Assembly (NCBI GenBank): GCA_018062825.1 | Contig: JAGORL010000003.1 | Span: 72,333-136,332, forward strand | DNA length: 64,000 bases | From: Patescibacteria group bacterium | GTDB taxonomy: Bacteria > Patescibacteriota > Patescibacteriia > UBA9934 | Direction of reading: 5' to 3' | Shown here: positions 1-60,590 of the stretch, piece by piece | How positions within the stretch are numbered: position 1 is the stretch's first letter | Layout of the letters: each line of letters starts with the position of its first letter | Notes under the pieces: generated by a model | Told to the model about the DNA's origin: nothing | Databases searched by the model: none | Seen by the model: only the letters and a program-made list of their open reading frames with translations | Program-made: the position numbers and the translations under genes

Positions 1-873
1 TCCAATGGTTCAAGCTCTATGGGCTCAACCTGTGGTGCCTCTTTGGCACTTATGGATGCCGGTGTACCGATCAAGGCACCAGTAGCCGGTATTGCGATGG
101 GTGTTGCTAGCGATGGCAAAGGTAACTTCCAGGTTATTACTGACTTGCAGGACCTTGAGGACGGTAATGGCGGTATGGACTTTAAGATCACCGGTACGCG
201 TACTGGCGTTACCGCTATCCAGCTTGATACTAAGACCGATGGTTTGCCTCGCTTTGTTATTGAGGAGACGATCGCTCGCTCAAAGGAGGCTCGCATGAAG
301 GTACTGGACGTGATGGCAACCGCTATTGCAGAACCTCGTGCTGACCTTTCGCCAAATGCTCCACGTATTCTTACGCTCAACATTAGCGTTGATAAGATTC
401 GTGAAGTCATTGGTCCTGGCGGCAAGATGATCAACGAAATCATTGAAAAGACGGGTGTTAATTCGATCGATATCGAGCAGACCGGTCTTGTGATGATCAC
501 CGCTACTAACGGCGAGGCGGGTAAGAAGGCTTTTGATTGGATTCATAACCTTACTCGCGAAGTTCAGGTTGGTGAGATTTTTGACGGTGAGGTTGTGCGG
601 TTGATGGACTTTGGTGCGTTTGTGCAGGTTTTGCCGGGCAAAGACGGTATGGTGCACGTTTCAGAACTCGCCCCATGGCGCGTTGGCAAGGTCTCTGACA
701 TGGTTAAGGTTGGCGACAAAGTAAAGGTGAAAGTGATTGAAATTGATGAAAAGGGTCGCATTAACCTGTCTATGAAGCAGGCTCCGGGTAATACTTATAC
801 GGATGAAATGAAGGCTCGTTCGCAAGAATCACGCCCGAGCGCCCCTAAGACTTTTGCACCAAAGTCTGAATAG
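1..873 (+). CDS. pnp: Polynucleotide phosphorylase (PNPase), C-terminal part with KH and S1 domains; 5' end lies outside the window
   Basis: Open in frame from nt 1. The translation carries PNPase hallmarks (GVTAIQLDTKTDG, a KH motif VIGPGGKMINEI, and an S1 domain GEIFDGEVVRLMDFGAFVQV). Confidence 0.9.
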   Translation, partial: SNGSSSMGSTCGASLALMDAGVPIKAPVAGIAMGVASDGKGNFQVITDLQDLEDGNGGMDFKITGTRTGVTAIQLDTKTDGLPRFVIEETIARSKEARMKVLDVMATAIAEPRADLSPNAPRILTLNISVDKIREVIGPGGKMINEIIEKTGVNSIDIEQTGLVMITATNGEAGKKAFDWIHNLTREVQVGEIFDGEVVRLMDFGAFVQVLPGKDGMVHVSELAPWRVGKVSDMVKVGDKVKVKVIEIDEKGRINLSMKQAPGNTYTDEMKARSQESRPSAPKTFAPKSE

Positions 874-5010: not shown

Positions 5011-6395
5011 CGCGCTAGATAATCACCCGGGTTCTTGAAGACACCATTTAAGAGAACCTCAAAGTGTAAGTGTGTTCCTGTTGAATTTCCGGTTGATCCA
5101 CAACGACCAAGAGGGGTTCCAGAGGTAACGCTGTCACCTGATTTAACGTAGAGACTGTTAAAGTGGCCGTAGCGCGTGACAAGACCATCACCGTGATTCA
5201 CCTCAACAGTAAGACCGTAACCCTTCTTGGTGCCGGAGAACTGAATGATACCGTCAGCGGCAGCGTAGTTATCGTTGGTACTTGTGCCGTCGGCATGGCC
5301 ATTGCAGTCGATATCGTATCCGGTATGGAACCAGCTCGTTTTACGTACGATATATTTCAGATCGGTTGGCCAAATCATGGACGCACCTTCAGCAAGAGCG
5401 ATGTCAGCATTTGAATCACTTGGCGCTGAAGTAAAGATTTCTTTTACGGCGACAGTAACCGGGCGGGAGACTGGGGTGGTTACCCGCTTTTCACCGCCAG
5501 GCACAATTAAACGTTGTCCGATTTTGAGGGCGTTCGCGCTTTCAATGTTGTTATAGGCCAAGATCTCTTCTGAGGAAACGCCGTAGGTGTTTGCGATTGC
5601 CGAAAGGGTGTCGCCGCTTCTGACAGCGTGCTCAACACCTGTTACCGGTAGGATGGATAGGGTATTTCCAGGTTTGATAATCGAACGAACCGTAAGACTA
5701 TTTGCCCAAAGCAACGTATCAAGAGAGATGCCAAACTGCTCCGCGATTGATGAGAGGGTATCGCCTGAGGCTACAGTATATGTTTCAACCTCAGTGCGCG
5801 TTCTTGGCGTTACCGGAGCATCAACTGCAACTGTTGCTGCTAGTGACGTATCGGTTGAAGTTGGGACGTCAGCTGCAACCGGCTGAGCTGTGAGTACTGC
5901 GCTACTTAAATATGACGATGGCACGTGCGTGATGGCGGCCATTGGATCAATATATTCTTCAACGATCTCTACATTTTCTGTGGAGACCATGGCGTAAAGA
6001 ATGCTTTTCTGCCCTACTGAATCACGTTCAGCACGGACTGTTCCAATTTGAATATTGCTTGCACCAGCTACAACAGCGATCATAATCGCAACTACGTGCA
6101 CTGCAAACCGATTGGAGAGAAAAAACATGAACCGGTTCTTTGCTGGCCGGTAGAGCGAGGCGAGTTGGTGACGAAATGAAAAGGCGATCTCGTAGAGCGG
6201 CAGGATAAATAGCGACAAGAATAGGCGCCCGAACGGTCTTGCGACAATTAAAAGAAAGCTAGCGACCTTGATGATTAGTCGTTTTAAGGCTACCAAACCA
6301 CGCACGAACATTAGACCAATTTTAGCTAATGTTGGAGAAATATTTGCCATAGGATCGGCAACGGGTAGCATAGCAAACTTCCCGCTCTTCGCCAA
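5007..6395 (-). CDS. M23-family metallopeptidase with LysM domains and an N-terminal membrane anchor
   Basis: Two LysM motifs (GDTLSSIAEQFG.., GDTLSAIANTYG..) and an M23 catalytic region (HxGxD..HLHFEV). The start codon is uncertain; internal Met codons are possible. Confidence 0.8.
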   Translation of the reverse strand: MAKSGKFAMLPVADPMANISPTLAKIGLMFVRGLVALKRLIIKVASFLLIVARPFGRLFLSLFILPLYEIAFSFRHQLASLYRPAKNRFMFFLSNRFAVHVVAIMIAVVAGASNIQIGTVRAERDSVGQKSILYAMVSTENVEIVEEYIDPMAAITHVPSSYLSSAVLTAQPVAADVPTSTDTSLAATVAVDAPVTPRTRTEVETYTVASGDTLSSIAEQFGISLDTLLWANSLTVRSIIKPGNTLSILPVTGVEHAVRSGDTLSAIANTYGVSSEEILAYNNIESANALKIGQRLIVPGGEKRVTTPVSRPVTVAVKEIFTSAPSDSNADIALAEGASMIWPTDLKYIVRKTSWFHTGYDIDCNGHADGTSTNDNYAAADGIIQFSGTKKGYGLTVEVNHGDGLVTRYGHFNSLYVKSGDSVTSGTPLGRCGSTGNSTGTHLHFEVLLNGVFKNPGDYLAR

Positions 6396-6484
6396 TTGCT
6401 TTTATCATAATTTGGCTAACTGTAGCTATTAATTGACGAAAGCTCTGACACTGCTATACTCCTTTCGTTTTAGATGAATATCTT

Positions 6485-7850: not shown

Positions 7851-8144
7851 TTAGCGGGGCTTACAGCCCTGGCCGTGCGGACGATCACCCCCTTCGAAGG
7901 AGGTATTGATCTGCGGCGCGAGATGGCCCGCGCGCACCGCAGCGCGCTGCTCCGGCGTGGCCGCGTGGAAATCCTCGAGCGTTGGCTGTCCGCCATGGAA
8001 GAACGTGGCCGGGATCGTATCCTCAAGGTCATGCTGGTCGAGCTCGTGGATGATCTTGGTCGCGGGGTCTGCGGAAACATCGCGGCGAGGTGGTGGGGTG
8101 AAGCTGGACAAGATAGCCTCCAATTGGCCGCAAAATAGTAGCAA
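7851..8144. other. Short GC-rich fragment with antiparallel ORFs (87 aa on +, 97 aa on -); possible remnant of a foreign high-GC gene
   Basis: A ~300 bp stretch whose G+C is well above both flanks, with high-GC ORFs open on both strands. No start context is convincing for either frame. Confidence 0.35.
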
Positions 8145-8277
8145 AGGTTAGCGGAAATGTAAAGGATAGAGTAGGTCCACTTCGTCCCAGCGGACTACGT
8201 TAGGACTGGAGAGTAGTTAGTAGGGAGCAGGGTTAGGAGTGATGATTCTTTATTACTTTGTTACACTCAGGATATCT

Positions 8278-10798: not shown

Positions 10799-10876
10799 TT
10801 ATCCCCATTCTGTGCACTCTTATCCCCAATGTGGACAACTTTTCGCTAATCTTTGTCACATTGTTTGTTGTGGATA
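10799..10876. promoter_or_regulatory. oriC element 1: cluster of DnaA boxes upstream of dnaA
   Basis: TTATCCCCA (twice), TGTGGACAA and TGTGGATAT within ~80 bp, followed by an AT-rich tract, directly upstream of dnaA and downstream of rpmH. Confidence 0.7.
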
Positions 10877-10954
10877 TTTTGACTATGATGGCAGCGTCGT
10901 CACGAACAAAGCAGCAGCCGCTTTTGCGGTCGCGCACACGTTGGAATATCGCCT

Positions 10955-12346: not shown

Positions 12347-12386
12347 TTCTCCCCAGGTGACTGTGGAAAAACTGCAGATATGTGTA

Positions 12387-12598
12387 CAGTGGATAGCTCG
12401 GGGATAAAGCAGTGGATGAGTGGATGGATAAGTATGGGGATGAGCGTGGGACGAACAAGGGACAAAGGCATGGGCTATGAAACAACTTTGTTTCATACAC
12501 AGGCGACTCCCGCGGTCTTCCCAAACTTCTCCACATCAGGGACAATGGAATCGCTCAATAGACAATGCTTGAAGTGGAGTTATCCATGTCATCCACAG
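12387..12598. promoter_or_regulatory. oriC element 2: DnaA-box-like cluster in the dnaA-dnaN spacer
   Basis: Repeated GTGGATAG, GTGGATGA, TGGATGGATAAG, TTATCCATG and CATCCACAG motifs in a 290-bp non-coding spacer. Confidence 0.55.
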
Positions 12599-12640
12599 AC
12601 TCACAGCTACTATCAGTTTAGTAAATAAATTTATCTCTCT

Positions 12641-13900: not shown

Positions 13901-14476
13901 TTATTTTTGCACCGGGTACACCTCGATCGTTACGGTTTTAAGACCGAATTCACGAGCATCAGGAATTTCCTCCATCCAGATGTCGATACGCTTGGTATAG
14001 CGTGGGTTCATGCGGTCTTCAACGATAAAGATTTGATCGCCGAATACCTCAGGAATACGAACGCGGGTACCGAAGGGAAGGAAGTTTGCAGCAATAACAC
14101 CAAAGCGAGTCTGGGTATTACTTGCGGTTGTAAAAGGCGTATCGTCGGTCTGCCAAGGAACGGAGTTATAAGCCGTTGCCTGCACCGTTACTGTGTAGGA
14201 TGGACCGCGAAGATCGGCCTCGGGAAAGGTTCCATACGGAAGTGATTGGTTCTGCATGGCAGCCACTTCAAGCGCCGTAGCCTTGTTTCCTGACAAGGTA
14301 GCGGCAATGGTGGTGCCAGCTGAGGCAGGAATAGCGGCAAAACCGAAGAGCACAAGAAGGGCAGTGAAGGCGGCGGTTTCCACCGGCGCGCTGCGAAGTG
14401 CTTTTGCGATTTGACGTAATGAGAGTAGCTTCATAGGGGAAACAAAAACTTCCGGAAGAACCGGAAGAAACGTCAT
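13901..14476 (-). CDS. 3D-domain (YuiC/MltA-like) cell-wall-binding protein with signal peptide
   Basis: C-terminal region resembles the 3D domain (TATAYNSVPWQTDDTP...GTRVRIPEVFGD..IVEDR..IDIW). The start may be the internal Met at 14434. Confidence 0.55.
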   Translation of the reverse strand: MTFLPVLPEVFVSPMKLLSLRQIAKALRSAPVETAAFTALLVLFGFAAIPASAGTTIAATLSGNKATALEVAAMQNQSLPYGTFPEADLRGPSYTVTVQATAYNSVPWQTDDTPFTTASNTQTRFGVIAANFLPFGTRVRIPEVFGDQIFIVEDRMNPRYTKRIDIWMEEIPDAREFGLKTVTIEVYPVQK

Positions 14477-14636
14477 TATAGCTTATTTTAGCCACTTTGT
14501 CAAGGAAAAATGCCTATAATTTGGCTAATATTAGCTAAATAGCTTTAATAAGCTTCGCTAGCATTAGCCATGTTTTAGTATTTGGGTAGAAAATTGCTTT
14601 ACATCCCTGATTTTTTGGTACACTTTAGATGAATAT

Positions 14637-20166: not shown

Positions 20167-20607
20167 TTATCCCTCCATGAGGATGCGAACGATATTGTTT
20201 AGGTCCATGGAGGCAAGATTTTTAGGTACGGTATCAAGTAGGGCTTTTTTAACGTCAGCGTGTAGAGCGTCTATCAGGATGTTTTTATTGATTTCTGGAA
20301 CACAGATAAGCACTTCTTCAACTCCATCGTGATCAATCATGGTGCGCAGTTTTTCTGAGATCGCGCTATAGAGTGTGACGAGACGGTTGTCTTTCATGTC
20401 ATCAATATCTTTTTTTGTTGAAGCATGCGCAGCTGTGATTCTCTCGGCGTGTTCAAACTCAGGTGATGCTAAGCCTTCTACTTCTTCAATTTCGCGGTGG
20501 TGCGCAATAAGTAGCCGACACCGTTCGTTGTTGGTGAGTGCGATAACGGTCTTTTTCTCAAAGGCTTTGTAGTGATCCGAGATGCGCATATAGATAAAGT
20601 GTACCAT
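20167..20607 (-). CDS. Host_attach (PF10116)-like protein, eRF1-like fold
   Basis: C-terminal pattern LICVPEINKNILIDALHADVKKALLDTVPKNL parallels the family's conserved block (VVAPPKTLGELRK..HKEV....L..KDLT). Matched from memory, not by search. Confidence 0.45.
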   Translation of the reverse strand: MVHFIYMRISDHYKAFEKKTVIALTNNERCRLLIAHHREIEEVEGLASPEFEHAERITAAHASTKKDIDDMKDNRLVTLYSAISEKLRTMIDHDGVEEVLICVPEINKNILIDALHADVKKALLDTVPKNLASMDLNNIVRILMEG

Positions 20608-23796: not shown

Positions 23797-24975
23797 ATGG
23801 CACGCCACGTAATCATTGGAGGTGGCATTGCTGGCGTGAGCGCTGCCGAGGAGATTCGTAAGATTGATCCGGCGAGCGATATTACGCTTTTTGAGATTGA
23901 GGAGATCCCATGCTATTCACGGGTGCTTTTGCCGCATTACGTGAAGGGTATTGTGCCGCGAGAGAAGGTTTTTTTACGCGCACCTGATTGGTATGGTCGC
24001 CAAGGTATTGATTGGCGTCACGGTGTGCATGTTGAAGGCGTTGACGTTTCCAATAGCTTTGTCACTACAAGTGAAGGAAGAGAAGAGCCTTTTGATACGC
24101 TTCTTATAACAACTGGAACTGAGGTGACTACGCTTCCTGAGCAACCGCGGGGTGTTTCTTATCTGTCTGAACTCGGAGACGCTGATCATTTACGCGAGCT
24201 TTTAGCTGAGGTTCGCGCAAAGGGCGATGACGCAAGAGGTTTTATTTATGGCGGTGGGTTTATTGCTTTTGAGTATGCGAATATTTTTGCGCATTACAAA
24301 GTTCCATTTGCGATTGCTATGCGTGGATCAGGTTTTTGGTCTAAGGTCTTATCTTCAGCGAGTCAGGCTGTTTTAGCTCAGCACGCACAAGCAAAGGGCG
24401 TTCAGGTTTATTTTAATGAGCCGCAGCCAGAGATTCTTGGAGGCTTAACTCTTGAAGGGGTAAGGCTTTCAGGTGGGGTTTCACAATCAGTAGATATTTT
24501 AGGTATTGGTATTGGTTCTTTACCGCAGCATTCATTAGCAAAAGCTGCGGGACTGGGGGTAGATCGTGGCATTTTGGCGAATGAGTATTTAGAAACATCG
24601 CTTCCTCACGTGTATACTGCCGGAGACGTCTCACAGGCGTTTGATCTCAACGTACGGCGTAACGTGCAGTACGGCAATTGGATGAATGCTCAACGGCAAG
24701 GAATGACCGTTGGTAAAACAATGGCTGGCGAGCGAACGGCGTTCAAGCTTGTGTCCTCGTATGCAACGCAGTTTCTTGGCAAGCACGTTGTATTTATTGG
24801 CGACGTGAGTCGTGAAGCGGCGGATGAGGTTCGTCAGGTGGTTCTTGAGCAAGACGTCGCGCAAGAGATCTTTTTACGAAATGGTATGGTAGTGGGTGCA
24901 TCGCTTATTGGCGATACGTCTCAACGAGCCGCTTTGACCGCAAGTATTGGTCAGCGAGCAGATGATGTTTTATGA
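23797..24975 (+). CDS. FAD-dependent pyridine-nucleotide-disulfide oxidoreductase (ferredoxin/rubredoxin reductase-like)
   Basis: Two Rossmann dinucleotide motifs (VIIGGGIAGVSAA and a second GGGFIAFEYA region), adjacent to the ferredoxin gene. Confidence 0.7.
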   Translation: MARHVIIGGGIAGVSAAEEIRKIDPASDITLFEIEEIPCYSRVLLPHYVKGIVPREKVFLRAPDWYGRQGIDWRHGVHVEGVDVSNSFVTTSEGREEPFDTLLITTGTEVTTLPEQPRGVSYLSELGDADHLRELLAEVRAKGDDARGFIYGGGFIAFEYANIFAHYKVPFAIAMRGSGFWSKVLSSASQAVLAQHAQAKGVQVYFNEPQPEILGGLTLEGVRLSGGVSQSVDILGIGIGSLPQHSLAKAAGLGVDRGILANEYLETSLPHVYTAGDVSQAFDLNVRRNVQYGNWMNAQRQGMTVGKTMAGERTAFKLVSSYATQFLGKHVVFIGDVSREAADEVRQVVLEQDVAQEIFLRNGMVVGASLIGDTSQRAALTASIGQRADDVL

Positions 24976-26070: not shown

Positions 26071-26584
26071 TGGCAAGTACGGTCTCAATGGCGCTCATGC
26101 CGGCTTCGTACCCTTTTTTCTGACCGCCGAGCGACCTTACCTCGGCTTGTTCTTTATTTTCTGTGGTCAGTACGCCAAAGACGACGGGAAGGTGGTAGGT
26201 AAGTGAAACGTTCGTGAGGCCATTAGCAACAGCGTCCGCAATATAGTGATCGTGCCGAGTATCGCCTTTTATAATGACGCCAAGACAGATGATGGCATCA
26301 AATTTTCCGGATTGCGCTAGGGCGTCAGCGGCGACAGGGAGCTCAAAAGATCCTGGCACGCGAAGTGTGTGTACGTTTGTAACGCTGGCGTCAGTGAGCG
26401 CTTGCTCGCAGTCTTGTACAAGCGCATCGGTGAGCTCTTGATTGAAGCGTGCGCCGATAATGGCGATGCGAAGTTTTGAGCCGTCGAGCGTTGAAAAGTT
26501 ATTTGATTTCATGTGAGGATTTACGGGATTTTTTAGAGCGGTGATCAGTAGCGTATTTTTCACCCCAAGCATGCATTTGCGCAA
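26057..26584 (-). CDS. ribH: 6,7-dimethyl-8-ribityllumazine synthase
   Basis: Clear RibH sequence (IAIIGARFN, LRVPGSFELP, ICLGVIIKGDTRH). The start is probably the internal Met at 26512. Confidence 0.85.
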   Translation of the reverse strand: MRKCMLGVKNTLLITALKNPVNPHMKSNNFSTLDGSKLRIAIIGARFNQELTDALVQDCEQALTDASVTNVHTLRVPGSFELPVAADALAQSGKFDAIICLGVIIKGDTRHDHYIADAVANGLTNVSLTYHLPVVFGVLTTENKEQAEVRSLGGQKKGYEAGMSAIETVLAIKKS

Positions 26585-26861
26585 TGATCGGTTCCAGATC
26601 TTTGCCCTTTTTTGTGAGCGTATATTCTACGCGCTGGGGGTTGTCTTTGAAGGTTGTCTTGATGACGACGCCCCATTTTTCAAGATCTGATAGGCGCTTG
26701 GAGAGGGTACGGGGGTTTATTCCACCTACAGCATCTTGCAATTGGCAAAAGCGCGCCGTGCCAGTTGTGAGGTGGGCTATTAAGCGCGGTGTCCATTTAT
26801 TGCCAAGAACAAGGGCGCTGATGGCAACGAGTTCTAGGGATGTAGAGGGGTTGTCCGACAT
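26499..26861 (-). CDS. HxlR-family winged-helix transcriptional regulator
   Basis: Pattern LGNKWTPRLIAHLTTGTARFCQLQDAVGGINPRTLSKRLSDLEKWGVV is diagnostic of HxlR. Confidence 0.75.
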   Translation of the reverse strand: MSDNPSTSLELVAISALVLGNKWTPRLIAHLTTGTARFCQLQDAVGGINPRTLSKRLSDLEKWGVVIKTTFKDNPQRVEYTLTKKGKDLEPIIAQMHAWGEKYATDHRSKKSRKSSHEIK

Positions 26862-32977: not shown

Positions 32978-33027
32978 GGTATAGAGAAGGGAGTAGGAAG
33001 TAGTTAGTAGGGGGGGGTAGTGCGAGG

Positions 33028-34477: not shown

Positions 34478-34501
34478 GAAGTAGTTAGTAGGGAGTATTT
34501 G

Positions 34502-34527
34502 CAAAAAAGCCCTGACGGGCTTTTTTG
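34502..34527 (+). terminator. Intrinsic terminator of the solute-binding-protein gene
   Basis: AAAAAAGCCCTGACGGGCTTTTTTG. Confidence 0.65.
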
Positions 34528-34548
34528 CTTGGTGTATACTTTTTGTAT

Positions 34549-35067
34549 ATGCAGGGTCGACGCGCCTTTTTTTTCATCCCGATTGTTCTTGGCTTGTTCT
34601 TTAGTTTTGTACCGGTGCAAGTTCAAGCGCAGGGTGAGGTTGAATCAGAATTTCAGGATATTTTAAGTCAGGGAATTGTCTTTGCCGGCATCTGTGATAG
34701 CGCCACGGCTCCATGTGCGTGTCGGGATGTTGGCCAGTGTCAGTTGGATGATATTTTGCAGTTATTTGTGAATGTGAGCATTCTGATTCTTGGTATCAGC
34801 GGATCGATCGTGCTTCTCATGTTTGTATGGGGTGGCTTGCAGTGGATTTTATCGCAAGGCAATCCAAGCATGATTGAAAGTGGTAAAAATACCATGATTA
34901 ATGCTGCTATTGGTCTGGCGATTATTTTCGGCTCGTACGCTATGATCAATATTCTTATTTCTGTAGCGACCGGGCAAGGTCCGGCAGCTTCGCCAACGAT
35001 TGAGGGCACTATTGAAGGCGCGGTTCCTGGTAGTAATCCTGGTGCGGTAGTTAATACCGTTGAATAA
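34549..35067 (+). CDS. TrbC/VirB2-like pilin-family protein, paralog 1 of 6
   Basis: Signal peptide, Cys-containing variable region, then conserved TM1-(WGGLQWILSQGNP)-basic loop-TM2, shared with the next five genes. Confidence 0.6.
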   Translation: MQGRRAFFFIPIVLGLFFSFVPVQVQAQGEVESEFQDILSQGIVFAGICDSATAPCACRDVGQCQLDDILQLFVNVSILILGISGSIVLLMFVWGGLQWILSQGNPSMIESGKNTMINAAIGLAIIFGSYAMINILISVATGQGPAASPTIEGTIEGAVPGSNPGAVVNTVE

Positions 35068-35071
35068 ACAT

Positions 35072-35434
35072 ATGATGCTTTTAAAACGTATTTCACAAAT
35101 TGGCGTTTCCATTGGATTGTTTCTGTTCCCATTTTTTGTTCACGCTCAGGCGGTGACACTCATTAACCCACTTGGTGAAGGGAGCAATGATCCACGTTTA
35201 CTTATTGGACGTTTGATTGCGGCGGTTCTTTCGATTGTTGGTTCTTTGGCATTACTTATGTTCCTGTATGGTGGTCTTATTTGGATTACCTCAATGGGTG
35301 AGAGTGATAAGGTTATGAAGGGTAAGAAGATCCTTATTTGGGCTACCCTTGGCCTGGTTATTGTGGCGAGCGCCTACGTAATTGTGAATGCCATTATTCT
35401 TGGTTTGACGACGGGAAATGTAACCACCACTTAG
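35072..35434 (+). CDS. TrbC/VirB2-like pilin-family protein, paralog 2
   Basis: LLMFLYGGLIWITSMGESDKVMKGKKILIWATLGLVIVASAY; same architecture. Confidence 0.6.
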   Translation: MMLLKRISQIGVSIGLFLFPFFVHAQAVTLINPLGEGSNDPRLLIGRLIAAVLSIVGSLALLMFLYGGLIWITSMGESDKVMKGKKILIWATLGLVIVASAYVIVNAIILGLTTGNVTTT

Positions 35435-35505
35435 CAGCAATGAGGAATCATACACACCTACCGTCAGAGTCTAGGAATTCATGTATAATATAAAAAAATT
35501 AACCT

Positions 35506-35928
35506 ATGCCTATGATCAAGTCTTTGGTACGTCTCGGGATGAGTGTTGCGCTCGGTTTGGCACTTGCTCTTCCGTTCCTCCGTTTGGCTCCATCAGCAAT
35601 CTCGGTTGCTCATGCTCAGCCACTTGATTCGGGAGATTTCTTGTCAGATGACTTTTCTGACTCTACGGGCCTTGGTCAGAGTGACTTGCAGACGACAATT
35701 GGTAATTTGATCCGCGTTGCCCTTGGTTTTCTTGGTGTGATCGCGGTATGTATCATCTTGTTCGGTGGTTTTAAGTGGATGGTAGCAGGTGGTAATGATG
35801 AGAAGGTTGCCGAGGCTAAGCGCTTGCTCATTGCTGGCGTTATCGGTCTAGCCATTATTTTGTCCGCTTACGCAATTGCTTCGTTCCTACTCACTTCAAT
35901 CTTGAACGCCTCAACCGATTCGCTCTAG
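35506..35928 (+). CDS. TrbC/VirB2-like pilin-family protein, paralog 3
   Basis: ILFGGFKWMVAGGNDEKVAEAKRLLIAGVIGLAIILSAYAI. A TATAAT box lies upstream, so it may have its own promoter. Confidence 0.6.
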   Translation: MPMIKSLVRLGMSVALGLALALPFLRLAPSAISVAHAQPLDSGDFLSDDFSDSTGLGQSDLQTTIGNLIRVALGFLGVIAVCIILFGGFKWMVAGGNDEKVAEAKRLLIAGVIGLAIILSAYAIASFLLTSILNASTDSL

Positions 35929-35974
35929 GTTTTTTACTAACGGTTCTCCTGAACAAATGTTCAGGGGTTCCGCT

Positions 35975-36388
35975 ATGAAGAAACTCGCTGTTGCAGCACT
36001 ATTTTCGATCGGCTTTTTGCTGCCGGGTATTTCTTTGGCACAGCTTTCTCCAGGTGATAACTATGGTTTGAATGATACGGCGCAGGCCGGATACGGTGAG
36101 GGCGTGACCAGCAATAGCAATATCGGCACTTATCTTGGTACTTATATTATTCAGCCAGTACTTGGTTTGATGGGTATTTTGTTTCTTTTACTGACAGTGT
36201 ATGCGGGATTTTTGTGGATGACAGCCCAAGGTGATGATAGCAAGGTTAAGAAAGCAAAAGATATTTTGGTGGCGGCGGTTATTGGGGCGGTGATCATGGC
36301 TTCAGCTTATGTTCTGACTGCGGCAGTTTTTAACGCCTTGAGCACGGGTAGTATTACAGCTGCGGCAACTACTTCTACCCAAGAATAG
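35975..36388 (+). CDS. TrbC/VirB2-like pilin-family protein, paralog 4
   Basis: LLLTVYAGFLWMTAQGDDSKVKKAKDILVAAVIGAVIMASAYVL. Confidence 0.6.
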   Translation: MKKLAVAALFSIGFLLPGISLAQLSPGDNYGLNDTAQAGYGEGVTSNSNIGTYLGTYIIQPVLGLMGILFLLLTVYAGFLWMTAQGDDSKVKKAKDILVAAVIGAVIMASAYVLTAAVFNALSTGSITAAATTSTQE

Positions 36389-36391
36389 TGT

Positions 36392-36787
36392 ATGAAAATT
36401 TCCCGCTCACTTATTTTGACACTTATTTTATCAGTTGTTTTATTTATTCCAGCCGTTGTTTTTGGGCAGTTTACTGACGGACTACCTGACGTCGCTGACG
36501 CCACTCAAGGTGGTTATAATGCAAATTCTAGCTTAGCCGGTACGATTGGTTTACTTATTCAAGCATTTTTGGGAATTTTGGGAGTAATTTTTTTACTCCT
36601 TACTATTTATGCTGGCTTCCTTTGGATGACGGCAGCTGGTGATGATGGCAAGGTCAAGCAGGCCAAAGAAACGCTCGTGCGAGCAGTGATAGGTATGGTG
36701 ATCGTGCTCGCTGCCTACAGTATTACTTTCTTTGTGCTGGGTTATGTTGCAGCTGCCACGTCACAGACGATTATTGGAGGTGTTTAA
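36392..36787 (+). CDS. TrbC/VirB2-like pilin-family protein, paralog 5
   Basis: LLLTIYAGFLWMTAAGDDGKVKQAKETLVRAVIGMVIVLAAYSI. Confidence 0.6.
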   Translation: MKISRSLILTLILSVVLFIPAVVFGQFTDGLPDVADATQGGYNANSSLAGTIGLLIQAFLGILGVIFLLLTIYAGFLWMTAAGDDGKVKQAKETLVRAVIGMVIVLAAYSITFFVLGYVAAATSQTIIGGV

Positions 36788-36822
36788 TAATGTGATACAC
36801 TATATTCATAATTAAAAGCACT

Positions 36823-37215
36823 ATGATTTCTACTTTAAAGAAGGTGTTCGTAGCTGGTGCGCTTGCTCTTTTGCCGTTTGGCGTTGCCGCTGTTCCTAGC
36901 GTGCACGCACAAAGTGCACTTGAGTCTACTTTGGATGATGTTCAGGCAGAATCAGGATTAGGTGATCAGGATTTGACTACCACCCTTGGTATGCTTATCC
37001 AGGCCATGCTTGGACTCCTGGGTGTTATTTTCCTGGTACTTATCATCTACGCTGGTTTCCTTTGGATGACAGCGGGTGGTGATGAGGGCAAGGTTAGCAC
37101 GGCTAAGGACATCATGATCCGTTCGGTGGTGGGCTTGGTGATCTTGCTCTCAGCGTACGCGATCAGTAGCTTCGTTATTGATGCGCTTATCGAGGCGACC
37201 GGTTCCGGTTCCTAA
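36823..37215 (+). CDS. TrbC/VirB2-like pilin-family protein, paralog 6
   Basis: LVLIIYAGFLWMTAGGDEGKVSTAKDIMIRSVVGLVILLSAYAI. Confidence 0.6.
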   Translation: MISTLKKVFVAGALALLPFGVAAVPSVHAQSALESTLDDVQAESGLGDQDLTTTLGMLIQAMLGLLGVIFLVLIIYAGFLWMTAGGDEGKVSTAKDIMIRSVVGLVILLSAYAISSFVIDALIEATGSGS

Positions 37216-37305: not shown

Positions 37306-37911
37306 TCACCGAGTGGGACACCGGCCGAGATTGAACTCGGAGCGGCGGCTCCACAGAGTGCTGTCCTTCATGATGTGGGCGAGGCTGTTGCAGCTCCCGA
37401 CCTTGTTGCCGGCAACCGTGGCGGGGCCAGCAGCGGTAACGGCCATGGAGTTCAGTGCGAACACTGCGATCCCGTTGTATACGCTGATGGTCTTAGAGCT
37501 TTCCGGCACAGCGCCACCGTAGGTGGAACCGGACAGTTGGACGCGCGGCGTGGACAGGATGGTCCAGGCCGAGCGACCGCTCGGAATGCAACTCACGAAT
37601 TCGGTGGGTGACACCCAGAGGCCGATGGCGATCCGGGTTTCGATCCCGCTTTGTTCGGTGAGGGTCATGACGGCGCTCGGATTTCCCGATCCGTCGAGGT
37701 TCGGGCGCAGACACCACTGGGTGGTGTTGCGCACCTCGAGACACAGCGGGTTGCTGTCGCAGCCCGCGGGCGGCGAGAGCACCCACTCGTTCTGGACGGT
37801 GGGGATGAACAACACCTGCGCGTTGTTCGTGCTTCCGGCACCCGCCAGGGCCGCCGTGGGGGCGAAGAAGGCGAGGACGAGGGTGAACAACGCGATGAGG
37901 GTGCGGATCAT
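37306..37911 (-). CDS. Secreted Cys-containing protein A of the GC-rich island
   Basis: Signal peptide MIRTLIALFTLVLAFFAPTAALA, six Cys, GC3-rich codons, and a GGAGG Shine-Dalgarno before the ATG at 37911. The track ORF extends further to 37962. Confidence 0.6.
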   Translation of the reverse strand: MIRTLIALFTLVLAFFAPTAALAGAGSTNNAQVLFIPTVQNEWVLSPPAGCDSNPLCLEVRNTTQWCLRPNLDGSGNPSAVMTLTEQSGIETRIAIGLWVSPTEFVSCIPSGRSAWTILSTPRVQLSGSTYGGAVPESSKTISVYNGIAVFALNSMAVTAAGPATVAGNKVGSCNSLAHIMKDSTLWSRRSEFNLGRCPTR

Positions 37912-38006
37912 GGGAACCTCCGAACTTGAAAGGGCGAGTGAACTCTGAGGCCTCGGCATCATGATTGATGCTGGTGCCAGTGGAGTGCCCTTCTTGCGAA
38001 AGGCGA

Positions 38007-38090
38007 GTTAGCTAGTTGCGAACGTCCAGGCTCCGTAGAGCATGATGGCTGCGATGGCGAAGAAGAAGATTGTGACGATTGACGCGGTCA
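38007..38090 (-). CDS. 27-aa single-TM hydrophobic peptide (MTASIVTIFFFAIAAIMLYGAWTFATS)
   Basis: Hand-found ORF between island genes B and A on the same strand, preceded by an AAGGAA Shine-Dalgarno 5 nt upstream. Below the ORF-track size cutoff. Confidence 0.35.
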
Positions 38091-38193
38091 TGTGGTTCCT
38101 TAGGTGTGTAACCCGCAGACAGCTCATCTTGAGTGATGAACGGTCAGTAGGGTGCCCGTTCGGACTTCTTGGAAGAAGCCGAACGGGACGTAG

Positions 38194-38826
38194 TCACTCT
38201 GCGAGCGCGTCGTTCGCGGCGCGGAGCGAGACCACTTCGCTCTCGAGCTCGCGGACGCGGGCGTCCGTGGCGGAGGAGGTGGTGGTCGACGGCGCGGGCG
38301 AGGCGGGCGGCGGGGTGATCTGGCCCATCGAGGCGGACTGGAACGCGAGCGTTCCCATCTGGCCGAGACCCGGCATGGCCATGCCGGGCATGAACATGCC
38401 GCCGTTGCCAACCGAGATGGCGGCGTACGGGGCGGCCTGGCCGGTGGCGATGAGGTCGCCGTCGGCGTAGGTCGCGACGTTCGCTTCGATGCCCGCGAGG
38501 GAGACGTCACGGCGGGTGCCGGCGTCGACCTGGCGCGTCGCGGCGTCGATGCAGCCGACGCCTTGCCCCATCATCTCGATGGTGTTCTTGGCGCTGACGT
38601 GCTCGGCGTCGATCGTGACACCGCACGCGTTGACCGACACCGTGGGGCGTCCGGTCAGCTGCGTGTTGCTCGTGGCGTCGACTCGGCCGCTGGTCTGCGT
38701 GCGGGGTGCAGCGGGGCTGCGCTCGGCGACCGTTGCGGTCGGGCGGCTGGTCGCGTTCGGGTTGCCACCGGCGAGGGCCGGGGTGGCGAAGGCGACGAGG
38801 GCGGCGAGGGTGATGAAGCGGATCAT
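38194..38826 (-). CDS. Secreted low-complexity protein B of the GC-rich island
   Basis: Signal peptide MIRFITLAALVAFATPALAGG, a Pro/Ala/Thr-rich region, and a C-terminal coiled-coil-like tail. GAGG Shine-Dalgarno before the ATG at 38826. Confidence 0.55.
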   Translation of the reverse strand: MIRFITLAALVAFATPALAGGNPNATSRPTATVAERSPAAPRTQTSGRVDATSNTQLTGRPTVSVNACGVTIDAEHVSAKNTIEMMGQGVGCIDAATRQVDAGTRRDVSLAGIEANVATYADGDLIATGQAAPYAAISVGNGGMFMPGMAMPGLGQMGTLAFQSASMGQITPPPASPAPSTTTSSATDARVRELESEVVSLRAANDALAE

Positions 38827-39203
38827 GGATGACCTCACAGTGGAAGGAGCGGATACTTTACCTGGCAGGTATTAGCCAGTTCAAGTAACACATATTTATA
38901 GCACAAATTTTGGAAAAAGTCAAGGGGGTTAGTGAGATAATTTGGCTAATATTAGAAGAAAATGTGAAATCGGAGATCGGGGATCGGAGATGGATTGAAA
39001 TGCTTTTTTGTGATTGCTACACGGAGATTTCTCAACTCGGCATTCAGACTCGTTCGGGATCGCAAGACGATACATGTAATTGTTTGTTGAGACCTTCCCG
39101 AACGAAAGTTAGGGATCTTGGTTATGTGTTGGCTCTTGGCACGAAGGCTAGACCCCTCACTTGCGTTCGGGGAAGTTTTCAATACTTTTAATAATGGCAT
39201 TTT

Positions 39204-39221
39204 ATAGCTAATATTAGCTAT
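39204..39221. promoter_or_regulatory. 18-bp perfect palindrome ATAGCTAATATTAGCTAT (candidate operator) upstream of the island gene C promoter
   Basis: Perfect dyad. Related sites occur at 14521-14537 (TTGGCTAATATTAGCTA), 38941-38955 (half-site) and 6411-6430, all in divergent promoter regions. Confidence 0.5.
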
Positions 39222-39239
39222 TTTTGTTTACTTATCCCA

Positions 39240-39268
39240 TTGACAAAACGTCGATTTTATGCTACTAT
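39240..39268 (+). promoter_or_regulatory. Sigma70-type promoter TTGACA-17-TACTAT for island gene C
   Basis: Consensus -35 and near-consensus -10 with a 17-nt spacer, ~85 nt upstream of the ATG at 39354. The hexamers match the rRNA promoter at 57222-57250. Confidence 0.6.
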
Positions 39269-39353
39269 ATAGTGTTCGCAAGTGCGGCACATCGCCCATT
39301 TCGCGAAAGCAACTTCACAATCTGCAGTCACAAAGTGACAATCGGAGATCGCC

Positions 39354-41384
39354 ATGGCCACGGAGTCTACTGGAGACAATCGTCGTATCGTTGAGCAGAC
39401 GCTTGGCGAGATCGGAGAAGAGTGGCTCGAGACGATCGGTAAGGGGATCAATCCCATGCCGTTCCTCGCGACGCCCCACTTCTGGGGTCCGCCGGCGCGA
39501 GCAATCGCGAAGCGCGTGGCTAAGCATCCGAACACGATCCTGGGCGGCTTTTCTTTTCTGGGCGCTGTTGCGCAGGAAAAGTTGCCCTTCGGTCGGGATG
39601 TCAACCTCATCGTCGCCACGATCTTGCGCGGTATCCCGCGTCTCGCTGAGAATTCGTTGGCGGCACATGGTGTGACCGCTGACAACATCGAACAGAAGAT
39701 TGTCGAGTGGGCTGTGCAGCTCGCGAAGGAGACCCCCATGACGACGACCATCGAGTCGAAGCCGGAGGCTCCCGCGACGCCCTCGGCACCCGCGTTCGAG
39801 CTCACGCAGGAGCAGGGCGATGCCCTCGGGCTTCTGCACCGCATCCTTGAGGTTCGCCTCACGGATGCGTTCAACTTCCCGACCGAGCCGCGGCGGTACC
39901 AGGCGCTGTTGCGCCGGCTGTCGGCGAGCCCGATCGCGGTTCAGTTCCTCCCGAAGCTCAAGAAGAAGGAGATCGATGCCACCCTCGCGCACTTGCGCAC
40001 CCTCCAGACCTGGACGGCGCCCAACGTGAGCGAGGACCGGCCGACCGACGAGATGGCCGCGCAGGCGCGGATCGAGGTGGAGAAGGTGCTCTGGCGCTAC
40101 ATGCGCTTCGAGGCCGCCCTCTTCGCCCATGATCACCACCTGAACGGCGCCTATTCGATCGTCATCGGGGCGCTCGATCGTCTCGATGCGAACGTGACGG
40201 ACGAACAGCGTCGCCAGTTCCGGGAGTTTTGGGAGCGTCAGCTCCAGAACCTCTCGGAGGCCGGCATCCCCGGCATGACCCGTGACTTCGCCGAGAACTC
40301 GGCGCGAGTCATCCGGGAACAGGCGGAGCGGCTGTTCGGCTTCACGGTCGACGTCGGCCGACAGGTGTTCGAGTTTGCGGCCTGGGCGTTTGTGGGGGTC
40401 AATAGCCTCCTCATCGCCGGGATCGCGCTCTGCCTCATGGGTATCACCATGGTGGCCGAGCAGACGTTCGTGGCTCCGGCGCTTCTCGGACTCCTCTTCG
40501 TGATCCAGGTCGGAATCGCTGGGCGTCTCCTCACGAGCTCTCTGAGCACGGCGTGGAAGGCGGCCATCGTCATCGCGGCGGCAGCGCTCCTCGTGTTCCA
40601 GGTGTCGTTCGTGTCTGCGCTTCTTGCGCACCCGAGCGTTCTCCTCTTCCAGGTGGGGATCTGCCTCATGTGGATCTGGTACTTCTTCGTCGGACTGTTC
40701 GACGCGGTCGTCAACGGCTTTGCGGCCTTGACGCGCGGAGAGCGGTTCGGCCGGGATGCCGGAACGATCACGAGGGCGTGGATCGCGACGCGCAATGCCA
40801 TCATCGGCCGCACGGTCGAGGGGCAGGGCACGGCGGATGTGCCGGTACAGTTCCGGTGGTTCCGCAATTGGTCGCCGACCGTCGTCATCATCGTCTCCCT
40901 CGTGGGTGGTGTTGGTAGCGCGACGCAGGCGTTCTGGTTCGGTGCTTCGGGCGGCTTGTTCTCGGCGCTCATGTTGCTTGGCTCCGGCTGGCTCACGGGC
41001 GGTTCCGCGATCATGTACACCCGTGGCAATCGGCAGTTGACGGCAGCGGACAAGGATAACTTCTGGTCGCTCGACTTGCGGCAGAAGTACGCCAAGCGGG
41101 CGTTCCTCGTTCCCGGTGTCCTCGGCCAGGTGATGCTCGTCGTTGGCCTTGCGACCCTCTTCGTTCCTTGGTTCAAGGGCGAGGCTCTCGGTCAGCAGGT
41201 CACGGTGGCGCAGCACGTAGTGGTCGAGCCCGCAGCTAAGCAGGAAGCGACGCCCGTCATCTCGACGAGCGACGCGGCCTGCGAGAAGGTCGAGCGAATG
41301 CTCCAGGCGTCTCCGGACGTTTGCACGCTCTCGCCCGGCCTCAAGAGCTGCGCCACTGCCAAGCGGTGCGGACTGCTGAAGTAA
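39354..41384 (+). CDS. 676-aa polytopic membrane protein of the GC-rich island (soluble N-terminal ~330 aa plus ~8 TM helices)
   Basis: Strong GC3 codon bias (ctc/gcg/acg/atc/gag) unlike the flanks, GGAGA Shine-Dalgarno, and no family motif recognised. The antisense 690-aa ORF is a high-GC artefact. Confidence 0.65.
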   Translation: MATESTGDNRRIVEQTLGEIGEEWLETIGKGINPMPFLATPHFWGPPARAIAKRVAKHPNTILGGFSFLGAVAQEKLPFGRDVNLIVATILRGIPRLAENSLAAHGVTADNIEQKIVEWAVQLAKETPMTTTIESKPEAPATPSAPAFELTQEQGDALGLLHRILEVRLTDAFNFPTEPRRYQALLRRLSASPIAVQFLPKLKKKEIDATLAHLRTLQTWTAPNVSEDRPTDEMAAQARIEVEKVLWRYMRFEAALFAHDHHLNGAYSIVIGALDRLDANVTDEQRRQFREFWERQLQNLSEAGIPGMTRDFAENSARVIREQAERLFGFTVDVGRQVFEFAAWAFVGVNSLLIAGIALCLMGITMVAEQTFVAPALLGLLFVIQVGIAGRLLTSSLSTAWKAAIVIAAAALLVFQVSFVSALLAHPSVLLFQVGICLMWIWYFFVGLFDAVVNGFAALTRGERFGRDAGTITRAWIATRNAIIGRTVEGQGTADVPVQFRWFRNWSPTVVIIVSLVGGVGSATQAFWFGASGGLFSALMLLGSGWLTGGSAIMYTRGNRQLTAADKDNFWSLDLRQKYAKRAFLVPGVLGQVMLVVGLATLFVPWFKGEALGQQVTVAQHVVVEPAAKQEATPVISTSDAACEKVERMLQASPDVCTLSPGLKSCATAKRCGLLK

Positions 41385-41388
41385 CAAA

Positions 41389-41419: not shown

Positions 41420-41506
41420 CTCATCCCCTGATTCGAGCACTCGCTCGGGTCGGGGGATTCTCTTTTTAGGGAGTAGGAAGTAGTTAGTAGAAAGTAGGCC
41501 AGGTCA

Positions 41507-42736
41507 TCACTTACGTTCGGGAAGGGGAGTTGATTGAGCGCGACTTAACATCATTGCAAAGAGTAGTGCGCCGATGATTGCGAGATCATTTTTCATTAAT
41601 GGGACGTCTACCAAGCCGTGAATACAAAGTGTGCACAAGGCAGCAAAAGCGGCTAAGGTTAGTGGATCATGATTGCTTGACCTGACGACTTTTGCGGTTG
41701 CGAGCATAAATGCGATGAGCGCGATGAGGCCAAGAGCACCGAGCTCGACCCAGACGTTTAGGATGATGTTGTGCGGGTATTGGAAGGTCTCAAATAGAGT
41801 TGCATCATGGTATGGAGTAATGGCGATTGGGAAGCCGTTTAAGCCAGCACCTTTGAGCGGGTGATCTTTGAGAAGTTCAAAGGTTTCTTGCCAGGTATGG
41901 AGGCGCGCTTGGCCTGACCAGTCACGGAGCAGGATTTTTTCTCGAGTGATTGGGATGAGTAAAGCAGTGACGCCAAGAAGACAGGTCGCTCCAATAAGGG
42001 CGATTTTTTGTTTGCTTGAAATGTTGGCGCATAGGAGGGAGCACAGCATGCCGATTGGAATGGCGATGAGTGCGGCTTCGGTTTGGGCAAGAAGAATTGC
42101 GAGTATGCCGATGGCGCTCAAGCTAAGAAGCGACTTTCGATGCTTTTTTGTGAGGATGGCAAGAGTAGTAGTTAGCGCGACGATGGGCGCTACAAAAAGG
42201 CCAAGTGCGTTTGGATACTCAAAGAAGCCGGTAGCACGACGCTCGATATCCCACGGGAGCGGAATTCCGAATCCGGTTGTCACTTGAAATAAGGCAAAGA
42301 CGGTCATGATGCCGACACTTGCCCCAAGAGCGCCAATGGCCTCTAGATAGTCATTTTTTGCTTTCCACGTGACGCGCATCATTATGAGTACGGCCATTGG
42401 TTCTAGGTAAAATGCTTTCCAAATGCCGAGTGCGGAAAAGATGTCGGGAGCGAGGGCGGCGCTGACTGAGGCTGCGGCAATAAGTAGTAGGAGAGGGGTG
42501 CGATATGGACCAAGAATCTGCAAGGGAAAGAGTTTCCAGGCTTGGTACTTGATCGTAAAAATGATGATGCTAGCAATAACGAGGAGCTCAAGCAGGGTTG
42601 TTGGGATTGGACCAATGTTAAAACGCAGGAGATATGTAGGTAGTAGCGCCATGAGTACCTTGAGGGCCAGTGGAAAATCACGCCAAGCAATAATGGCGTA
42701 TCCAATGACGATCAGTGCGGCCAAGATGAGCAACAT
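41507..42736 (-). CDS. O-antigen ligase/Wzy-like polytopic membrane protein
   Basis: ~10 TM helices and a periplasmic loop with YPHNIILNVWVELGALG, typical of the Wzy_C/O-antigen ligase family. Confidence 0.55.
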   Translation of the reverse strand: MLLILAALIVIGYAIIAWRDFPLALKVLMALLPTYLLRFNIGPIPTTLLELLVIASIIIFTIKYQAWKLFPLQILGPYRTPLLLLIAAASVSAALAPDIFSALGIWKAFYLEPMAVLIMMRVTWKAKNDYLEAIGALGASVGIMTVFALFQVTTGFGIPLPWDIERRATGFFEYPNALGLFVAPIVALTTTLAILTKKHRKSLLSLSAIGILAILLAQTEAALIAIPIGMLCSLLCANISSKQKIALIGATCLLGVTALLIPITREKILLRDWSGQARLHTWQETFELLKDHPLKGAGLNGFPIAITPYHDATLFETFQYPHNIILNVWVELGALGLIALIAFMLATAKVVRSSNHDPLTLAAFAALCTLCIHGLVDVPLMKNDLAIIGALLFAMMLSRAQSTPLPERK

Positions 42737-57250: not shown

Positions 57251-57408
57251 TCCGCCGCACTGTTCGTGAACAAAAGTTCACTTCAGAAGAGCTTTTTGGA
57301 CGAAAGTCCAGCGCGCCCTTCTGAACGTTTACAACTAAATATTCTACGAAGAAAAAGCAAACGCACTGATATCATGACCAAAAGGTCATGCGTACTCAGT
57401 GAATGGAG

Positions 57409-60418
<3,010 letters not shown>

Positions 60419-60480
60419 TCCATTCACTGAGTGCGTTAAATCGCACGCGTTTGCTAAACGAATAAAAAAACATTTCATTG

Positions 60481-60590
60481 TCTTGGTGGCATTTCCAGCG
60501 GGGACACACCCGTTCCCTTCCCGAACACGGAAGTTAAGCCCGTTTGGGCCGATGGTAGCCAAGTGTGGCGAGAGTAGGTGGCCGCCAGGA
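60481..60590 (+). rRNA. rrf: 5S ribosomal RNA
   Basis: TCTTGGTGGC..CCGAACACGGAAGTTAAGCCCG..GATGGTAGC..GAGAGTAGGTGGCCGCCAGGA; ends pair. Confidence 0.9.

Follow-up and report, generated by a model that had tools for sequence, protein, structure and literature searches.

An 18-bp palindrome with the properties expected of an operator family, positioned at either of two fixed distances before some promoters of an Uhrbacteria-like Patescibacterium

The DNA analyzed here, which we call the window, is a stretch of 64,000 nucleotides with a G+C content of 48.6%. Its source genome is that of an Uhrbacteria-like Patescibacterium, and the closest relatives of its trigger factor, at 58-66% identity and in one case 94%, are found in Patescibacteria and 'Candidatus Uhrbacteria' assemblies. 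The window carries genes for PNPase, LspA, Nfo, RnpA, DnaA and DnaN together with dksA-like and comM-like genes, as well as two gene pairs, one formed by an M23-LysM peptidase gene on the minus strand and tig on the plus strand, the other by the gene for a 3D-domain exported protein on the minus strand and that for PBP1A on the plus strand. A GC-rich island at 37306-41387, a block of 59-61% G+C in a 48% genome, directly follows six type IV secretion pilin paralogues (34525-37215). The products of the island are a 676-aa multi-pass membrane protein and two exported proteins; the exported proteins, among them the product of the leftward gene, have signal peptides. The 676-aa protein is identical to KBC55_03590 of 'Patescibacteria group bacterium', and no other relative was found among 5.8 billion proteins. 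Long ORFs occupy both strands at 39315-41387, which is an artefact of the G+C content; a promoter and a GGAG before the ATG point to the plus strand as the coding one.

The palindromic sites (dyads) and the promoters to which they relate are as follows, with scores in bits from the weight matrix described below:

6322-6339: dyad-like site TTAGCTAATGTTGGAGAA, 18.1 bits, in the 5′ region of the M23 gene (leader or coding sequence)
6367-6395, minus strand: putative promoter of the M23-LysM peptidase gene, TTGGCG-17-TATGCT, read directly, 8/12 matches, below the scan threshold
6412-6429: dyad TTGGCTAACTGTAGCTAT, 18.8 bits, common to the divergent tig and M23-peptidase promoters
6433-6460, plus strand: tig promoter, TTGACG-16-TATACT, from the promoter scan, 10/12 matches, with TG before the -10 box
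14475-14503, minus strand: promoter of the 3D-domain exported-protein gene, TTGACA-17-TATAAT, from the promoter scan, 12/12 matches
14478-14495: weaker dyad ATAGCTTATTTTAGCCAC, 16.4 bits, overlapping the spacer and -10 box of the 3D-gene promoter
14521-14538: dyad TTGGCTAATATTAGCTAA, 25.6 bits, the best dyad, 17 nt 5′ of the leftward -35 box and centered at about -61.5
14554-14571: third dyad of the 14478-14571 cluster, TTCGCTAGCATTAGCCAT, 17.5 bits, 33 nt from the main dyad at 14521-14538
38862-38879: dyad-like site CTGGCAGGTATTAGCCAG, a CTGGC..GCCAG variant read directly, below the matrix threshold and of uncertain membership, in the predicted leader of the leftward island transcript
38895-38923, minus strand: leftward island promoter, TTGACT-17-TATAAA, read directly, driving the exported-protein gene that ends at 38194
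38942-38959: dyad TTGGCTAATATTAGAAGA, 17.2 bits, 18 nt 5′ of the leftward island promoter
39204-39221: dyad ATAGCTAATATTAGCTAT, 22.2 bits, a perfect 18-nt palindrome 18 nt 5′ of the rightward island promoter
39240-39268, plus strand: rightward island promoter, TTGACA-17-TACTAT, from the promoter scan, driving the gene for the 676-aa membrane protein (39354-41384)

The -35 and -10 boxes of tig are conserved among relatives. The M23 promoter of the window was inferred by analogy with the related loci L003, L006 and L008-L011, in which 16-17 nt separate the dyad from a leftward promoter. The original prediction had picked out four dyads by eye, one between the M23 peptidase gene and tig, one between the 3D-domain and PBP1A genes and two between island genes B and C, and had called the last a perfect palindrome; the sequence confirms all four sites at the coordinates given and the 18-nt perfection of 39204-39221. 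The other dyads and dyad-like sites listed above are additional to that prediction. Its partner at 38942-38959 is half-degenerate, with only the left unit and the center intact. Around these two sites runs a 37-nt imperfect inverted repeat (38919-38955 / 39208-39244) enclosing 252 nt, which arises because two modules, each composed of a -35 box, an 18-nt gap and a dyad, face each other as mirror images. The 252 nt between the island sites gave no Rfam match and do not fold better than shuffled sequences (z = -1.6). A long imperfect hairpin, CCTTCCCGAACG ... CGTTCGGGGAAG, was also noticed at 39085-39180 between the two island dyads, with a related 17-mer at 41509-41525.

Across this genome and its relatives the palindrome has the 18-bp consensus TTGGCTAAnnTTAGCCAA. 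The recognition unit is the 8-mer TTGGCTAA, with complement TTAGCCAA, and two inverted units placed 10 bp apart yield the 18-bp dyad TTGGCnAAnnTTnGCCAA. Enumeration of exact dyads (5-mer arms, spacers of 0-12) returned GCTAA-N2-TTAGC as intergenic in only 4/5 copies; this approach was too strict to reveal the family, so a weight matrix was used instead. The matrix is symmetrised, has 18 columns and the consensus TTGGCnAAnnTTnGCCAA, and was built from 14 sites that were picked by eye, several of them for an adjoining TTGAC. The DNA scanned with it was the window together with 28 related tig loci, 496 kb in total; a crude ORF call leaves 11% of this sequence intergenic. These 28 loci came from a scan of a genome collection with a trigger-factor alignment and extend up to 10 kb on each side; since the relatives were sampled around tig, many of the sites are orthologous rather than independent.

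That the sites belong to one family, as had been proposed, is borne out by their number, by their bias toward non-coding DNA and by a quantised spacing to the -35 box. Searching both strands of the window with TTGGCTAATATTAGCTA at up to 3 mismatches gave 7 matches where 0.15 would be expected by chance, a number that not one dinucleotide shuffle out of 100 attained. At a threshold of at least 14 bits, the matrix found 39 matches in the 496 kb, compared with 0-6 in mononucleotide shuffles. A similar density inside genes had been named in advance as the outcome that would count against the prediction, and it is not what we see: 25 of the 39 matches (64%) fall in the 11% of the sequence that is intergenic, and most of the "coding" matches lie within a few dozen bases of the 5′ end of ORFs called with the longest possible start. 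Within the coding and rRNA sequence of the window, just two weak matrix matches (13-14 bits, at 24202 and 60545) were detected. The dyads form a single motif family that is restricted to non-coding DNA. Several small ORFs beside dyads (L004 11267-11770, L004 400-735 and window 7851-8144) look spurious, with no homologues and an odd composition.

The internal structure of the sites bears on what is being conserved. High-scoring sites keep the outer TTGGC/GCCAA and the inner AA/TT positions but often have non-complementary bases at dyad positions 6 and 13 (C/A, G/A, T/C). Base pairing is thus not the conserved property, and a hairpin is not required. Single units, TTGGCTAA or TTAGCCAA, also recur in either orientation at offsets of 10, ~22 and ~33 bp, for example at L026 9921/9931, at L028 18310/18320 and in the window cluster at 14478-14571, and the TTAGCCAA unit is found within the tig promoter spacer of L006-L011. 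This recurrence suggests cooperative binding on one face of the helix. Together with the location of the sites 5′ of their promoters, these features favor a site for a protein over a structure formed by the nucleic acid itself.

The position of the dyads relative to promoters is fixed. For every dyad of at least 15 bits we sought the best match to TTGACA-16..18-TATAAT on either side, and the distance from dyad edge to -35 hexamer falls into two narrow classes of 3-5 nt and 16-18 nt. The shorter gap occurs at tig (window, L003, L004, L006, L008-L011, L015, L016, L026) and on the rpmH-rnpA side of the rnpA-dnaA spacer (L001, L002, L004). The longer gap is found at the 3D-gene promoter (window, L001, L013, L026, L027, L028), on the M23 side (L003, L006, L008-L011), at L004 11885 and at both island promoters of the window. 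The reverse analysis, starting from promoters in the window and the 28 tig loci, gave the same picture: 40 of 151 sigma70-like promoter matches on both strands are preceded, at a distance of 0-79 nt, by a dyad that scores at least 12 bits. Among these 40 dyads, 36 lie at the two preferred gaps (18 at 3-5, 18 at 15-18), leaving 4 elsewhere. Ten column-permuted palindromic matrices used as a control produced 0-1 matches in total. By our own count, at least eight promoter families obey the distance rule: tig, the rpmH-rnpA side, M23, the 3D gene, the PBP1A side in L027, island left, island right and L004 11885.

Divergent promoter pairs often share a single dyad, at one distance per side. The dyad at 6412-6429 has its edge 3 nt 5′ of the tig -35 box and lies 16 nt from the putative M23 -35 box; likewise, at L006 and L008-L011 a single dyad is 5 nt from the -35 box of tig and 17 nt from that of the divergent M23 promoter. 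Assuming a 17-nt spacer and transcription starting 7 nt past the -10 box, so that all starts are predicted ones, the dyad centers lie at about -47.5 to -49.5 for the 3-5 nt class and about -61.5 for a 17-nt gap. The two position classes are 12-13 bp apart, which is not a whole number of helical turns and is awkward for a single activation geometry. The dyads had been described as lying 30-100 bp upstream of sigma70-like promoters; the promoters are real by their matches to consensus, but the distance needs correction, with the sites 3-18 nt 5′ of the -35 box and their centers ~47-62 nt before the predicted starts.

Not every promoter has a dyad. Within the window, only 3 of 16 promoter-like matches do, and none was found at the promoters of the 23S rRNA, tRNA-Gly, rpmH or the gene divergent from the HxlR gene. 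The window's PBP1A promoter has no dyad at either canonical distance; the dyads between the 3D and PBP1A genes are canonical in position for the leftward 3D-gene promoter alone. The dyad marks a subset of promoters and is not a generic promoter part.

When tig promoters were anchored on the -35 box, a dyad was present at a gap of 3-5 in 15 of 28 loci, within flanks that have diverged. The tig dyad is absent from loci with tig identity of 51% or less and also from some closer ones; the near relatives L149 and L154 retain the site at 6412-6429. At the 3D gene the dyad is kept at a gap of 16-17 in L001, L013, L026, L027 and L028. Orthologous promoters with a conserved dyad are those of tig, the M23 peptidase, the 3D-domain exported protein and rpmH-rnpA. 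The dyad-like site at 6322-6339 is, in L149, a conserved block with variable flanks around it. The dyads of the window neighbor tig, the genes for the M23-LysM peptidase and the 3D-domain protein, the PBP1A region and both island operons. In relatives they also neighbor rpmH-rnpA, beside dnaA, and the region 5′ of nfo in L004, and in L005, L007, L013 and L027 a conserved non-coding RNA 5′ of a dksA-like gene is driven from a promoter that has both a dyad and a DnaA box next to it.

A dyad that precedes only some promoters, and does so at two fixed distances, points to the binding site of a putative regulator. We put at about 65% the probability that the dyads are operators of one sequence-specific regulator, most likely a homodimer, in this Uhrbacteria-like Patescibacteria lineage. 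The operator geometry that had been predicted for a dimeric regulator is consistent with the fixed distances to the -35 box and with conservation of the dyad at orthologous promoters. We hypothesize that a homodimeric regulator would bind the dyad just 5′ of the sigma70-type promoter core, at either of the two set distances, and that the bound protein would contact RNA polymerase, through the alpha C-terminal domain or sigma region 4, and so set the output of this promoter subset. Of the possible signs of regulation we favor activation by such a contact, since -61.5 is the class I activation position and about -49 is the position at TnrA-activated promoters of Bacillus. Weaker units inside promoter spacers, or in clusters ~2-3 helical turns apart, would allow cooperative binding and possibly repression at high occupancy, and sites that overlap core promoter elements may have a repressive or dual role. 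The regulon predicted for the window would comprise tig, the M23-LysM peptidase gene, the 3D-domain exported-protein gene and both island operons, to which relatives would add rpmH-rnpA and others. A link between cell-wall genes and the island had been anticipated, and it holds insofar as both island promoters carry the module; the set is not specific to the cell wall, however, as in relatives it also takes in tig, rpmH-rnpA, the promoter of the non-coding RNA and other targets.

The same geometry could be explained without a separate regulator if the dyad were a lineage-specific UP-like upstream element read directly by two alpha C-terminal domains of RNA polymerase. The 3-5 nt class would span approximately -40 to -58, the zone of UP elements, and the distance to the -35 box varies as little as that of a core promoter element. 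UP elements are A/T tracts at -38 to -59 of strong promoters, especially those of rRNA, whereas the dyad is a palindrome with conserved G and C, so that the proximal class alone agrees with such an element, and it does so in position and not in sequence. The second class also lies 12-13 bp farther upstream, units occur within promoter spacers and in clusters, and a minority of promoters have a dyad, with the strongest housekeeping ones (23S rRNA, tRNA) going without. We therefore consider direct reading by the polymerase unlikely. Assignment to a known regulon, such as HrcA/CIRCE (heat shock), LexA (SOS) or a local regulator of the SlyA/MarR or HxlR type, appears less likely still. As leads, half-sites of the form TTAGC/GCTAA occur also in CIRCE (TTAGCACTC-N9-GAGTGCTAA) and in the SlyA site TTAGCAAGCTAA, tig encodes a chaperone, and an HxlR gene is present in the window. 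Against these points, the dyad has 8-nt arms and a 2-nt spacer where CIRCE has 9-nt arms and a 9-nt spacer, the targets (peptidase, exported protein, rpmH, island genes) belong to neither the heat-shock nor the SOS response, and no dyad lies near the HxlR gene. For LexA the comparison is one of gene content: lexA, recA and uvrA are absent from the sampled DNA, and the targets seen are non-SOS except for nfo in L004.

Two further explanations would deprive the sites of a regulatory role altogether. They could be copies or remnants of a small repetitive or mobile element (MITE- or REP-like) or a recombination site, with 38942 and 39204 as the inverted ends of a 300-bp insertion, and both the 37-nt imperfect inverted repeat around 252 nt and the occurrence of the exact 18-mer at the center of a high-copy MITE-like family in unrelated metagenome contigs would suit such an origin. 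The mirrored promoter-dyad modules fully account for the inverted repeat, though, and the window sites share no further similarity in their flanks. Among genomes with tig proteins of 53-66% identity, the dyads are found at orthologous positions with drifted sequences, a pattern at odds with recent transposition, and the spacing to promoters is quantised. We regard a mobile-element origin as very improbable. As a direct candidate, a MITE/REP repeat was rejected on the absence of a shared flank among the window copies and on the orthologous positions in diverged genomes. Finally, intergenic DNA is richer in AT than coding DNA and short palindromes are common, so that chance resemblance among AT-rich intergenic sequences deserves mention; given that dinucleotide shuffles, mononucleotide shuffles and permuted matrices yield far fewer matches, and that the dyad is conserved at orthologous sites, we find this scarcely credible.

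If the dyads are operators of a single regulator, as we favor, they differ from the well-studied sites to which they bear some likeness. CRP acts at lac from a class I site centered at -61.5, with the CRP consensus TGTGA-N6-TCACA and that of FNR being TTGAT-N4-ATCAA. The dyad resembles a CRP/FNR class I site in being palindromic and suited to a dimer, in a possible 5-6-5 layout (TGGCT-N6-AGCCA), in having one class whose predicted center is at about -61.5 and in its ability to serve divergent promoters; it differs in an unrelated consensus and in a second class with a predicted center at about -48/-49 instead of -41.5. Direct reading of the sites revealed no CRP, FNR or Lrp consensus, and no CRP-family gene was seen in the window. 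TnrA/GlnR of Bacillus subtilis binds 17-bp dyads, TGTNAN7TNACA, with activating sites ~49-51 bp upstream of the start. Like the proximal class, these sit just 5′ of the -35 box without overlap, at about -49, and TnrA/GlnR can repress when its sites overlap the core promoter. The consensus is a different one, however, and the regulon of TnrA/GlnR, which are of the MerR type, is nitrogen-specific.

Operators of KorA and KorB, global regulators of IncP plasmids (GTTTAGCTAAAC and TTTAGCSGCTAAA), share with the dyad TTAGC/GCTAA half-sites and a small number of fixed operator position classes relative to promoters. They are 12-13 bp long with abutting arms and are plasmid-borne, with KorB being of the ParB type, whereas the dyad is 18 bp long, chromosomal and conserved in its lineage. 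CIRCE, the HrcA site, is likewise an inverted repeat that starts with TTAGC and ends with GCTAA, and a chaperone gene (tig) is among the dyad targets, but the 9-nt arms and 9-nt spacer of CIRCE lie over or past the groE/dnaK promoters, whereas the 8-nt units and 2-nt spacer of the dyad lie 5′ of the -35 box. When the dyad was read as CIRCE, the arms TTAGCACTC/GAGTGCTAA at 9-nt spacing were not found, and the ACTC/GAGT part is missing. A sigma-54 promoter, TGGCAC-N5-TTGC, has its GG and GC exactly 10 nt apart and is not palindromic. The dyad was rejected as a promoter of this kind, as GG and GC are 9 nt apart in TTGGCTAATATTAGC, the site has dyad symmetry and it is followed by -35 and -10 boxes of the sigma70 type.

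The genes flanking the dyads include no recognizable DNA-binding protein, and no cognate candidate was found among them. The HxlR gene (26499-26861), the only classical transcription factor in the window, had been put forward as a candidate regulator; that proposal finds no support, as neither its own promoter nor that of its divergent neighbor has a dyad, and HxlR looks like a local regulator of that neighbor. A metagenome scan for TTGGCTAAWWTTAGCCAA returned mostly the MITE-like repeat family, the rest being scattered contigs of unassigned taxa, and yielded no candidate for the regulator. Perfect dyads in those contigs adjoin genes of the ArsR, Rrf2 and HrcA types, and these proteins have no homologue in the window or the tig loci. 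The exact consensus palindromes in such unrelated metagenome contigs are 8-9 nt and 14 nt from promoters, unlike the dyads of the Patescibacteria. As for the repeat family itself, it is found in contigs of one metagenome project (L029-L148; JAAUYA01..., JAAUXW01...), where it is present in high copy with the 18-mer TTGGCTAA(AA/TT)TTAGCCAA at its center and GCAGCCAA and TTCTGATCCAAATTTTGTCATCTCTGAGATCAGTGTAAATCAAGTGAGAA on either side. The family has no relation to the dyad sites of the Patescibacteria.

We found no description of the motif in a full-text literature search. To our knowledge, almost nothing is known of transcription control in the Patescibacteria (Candidate Phyla Radiation), which are mostly uncultured and have tiny genomes with few regulators. 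The motif offers a concrete regulon in this group that can be tested, along with a handle on its regulator. The island adds a case in which genes of foreign composition, acquired recently, are equipped with the promoter-plus-operator module of their host. The dyad would be an operator of an ordinary kind, and no concept changes unless the regulator proves unusual.

A more ambitious version of the operator reading is that the protein is a lineage-specific master regulator coupling chromosome replication to ribosome and chaperone supply and to envelope growth, and thereby playing the part that CtrA or Spo0A has elsewhere. Its sites of action would be promoters near the origin (rpmH-rnpA/dnaA and the DnaA-box-flanked promoter of the non-coding RNA), M23, 3D, the PBP1A region and tig, with the newly acquired GC-rich island wired in. 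We speculate along these lines while holding the idea to be doubtful. CtrA binds TTAA-N7-TTAA and Spo0A boxes read TGTCGAA. As with those regulators, dyads of the relatives occur in the rnpA-dnaA intergenic region, by DnaA boxes and at wall genes (PBP1A region, M23, 3D); unlike theirs, the consensus is a different one, no response-regulator gene is linked and the DnaA-box clusters of the window have no dyad, so that the likeness is one of target genes only. Clusters of DnaA-box-like 9-mers flank dnaA at 10799-10877 and 12362-12597, and this region is likely the replication origin; no window dyad lies inside the clusters. The '82-aa ORF' at 12380-12628 is probably non-coding.

Several other elements were noticed in the intergenic regions. 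The plus strand at 2244-2585, between its own promoter and the dksA-like gene, contains a candidate structured RNA of ~340 nt that is also present in L001, L005, L007, L010, L011, L013, L027 and L149. It starts with the invariant GTAATCGTTCTTTC, its hairpins show compensatory changes, and at its end a GC stem and a T run resemble a terminator. The RNA is ~95% identical to that of L149, where the DNA just 5′ of it has diverged, and double changes occur in 13 of 30 predicted pairs. The region has no Rfam match even at E<=1, and we regard it as a candidate new structured RNA. A hairpin that resembles a terminator, CTTCCGGTTCTTCCGGAAG with TTTTTGTTT after it, is present on the minus strand at 14449-14467, within the first ~20 nt of the predicted transcript of the 3D gene. 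It lies between the perfect consensus promoter of this gene and the likely start codon at 14434 and could be a leader attenuator or a stabilizing 5′ hairpin.

Two short repeats lie near gene starts. An identical 13-mer, TTTAGATGAATAT, occurs at 6469-6481 and 14624-14636, immediately 5′ of the tig and PBP1A start codons, neither of which has a Shine-Dalgarno sequence; the two exact copies exceed chance, while the count with 2 mismatches is not significant. A purine-rich intergenic repeat, GGAGTAGGAAGTAGTTAGTAGGGAG, is present on the plus strand at 8205-8238, 32985-33019, 34478-34495 and 41465-41500, three times just 5′ of an ORF start. Its 15-mer GTAGTTAGTAGGGAG has 4 matches at up to 3 mismatches against 0.9 expected, and a complementary-looking version stands 5′ of tig in L022. 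The 23S rRNA (~3.0 kb, against a 2925-nt model) and 5S rRNA genes are at 57404-60590 with no 16S gene upstream, and since protein genes lie directly 5′ of the 23S promoter, the rRNA operon is unlinked. At 20167-20607 on the minus strand, a 146-aa protein matches the bacterial archaeo-eukaryotic release-factor-like families (baeRF family 10 and 12).
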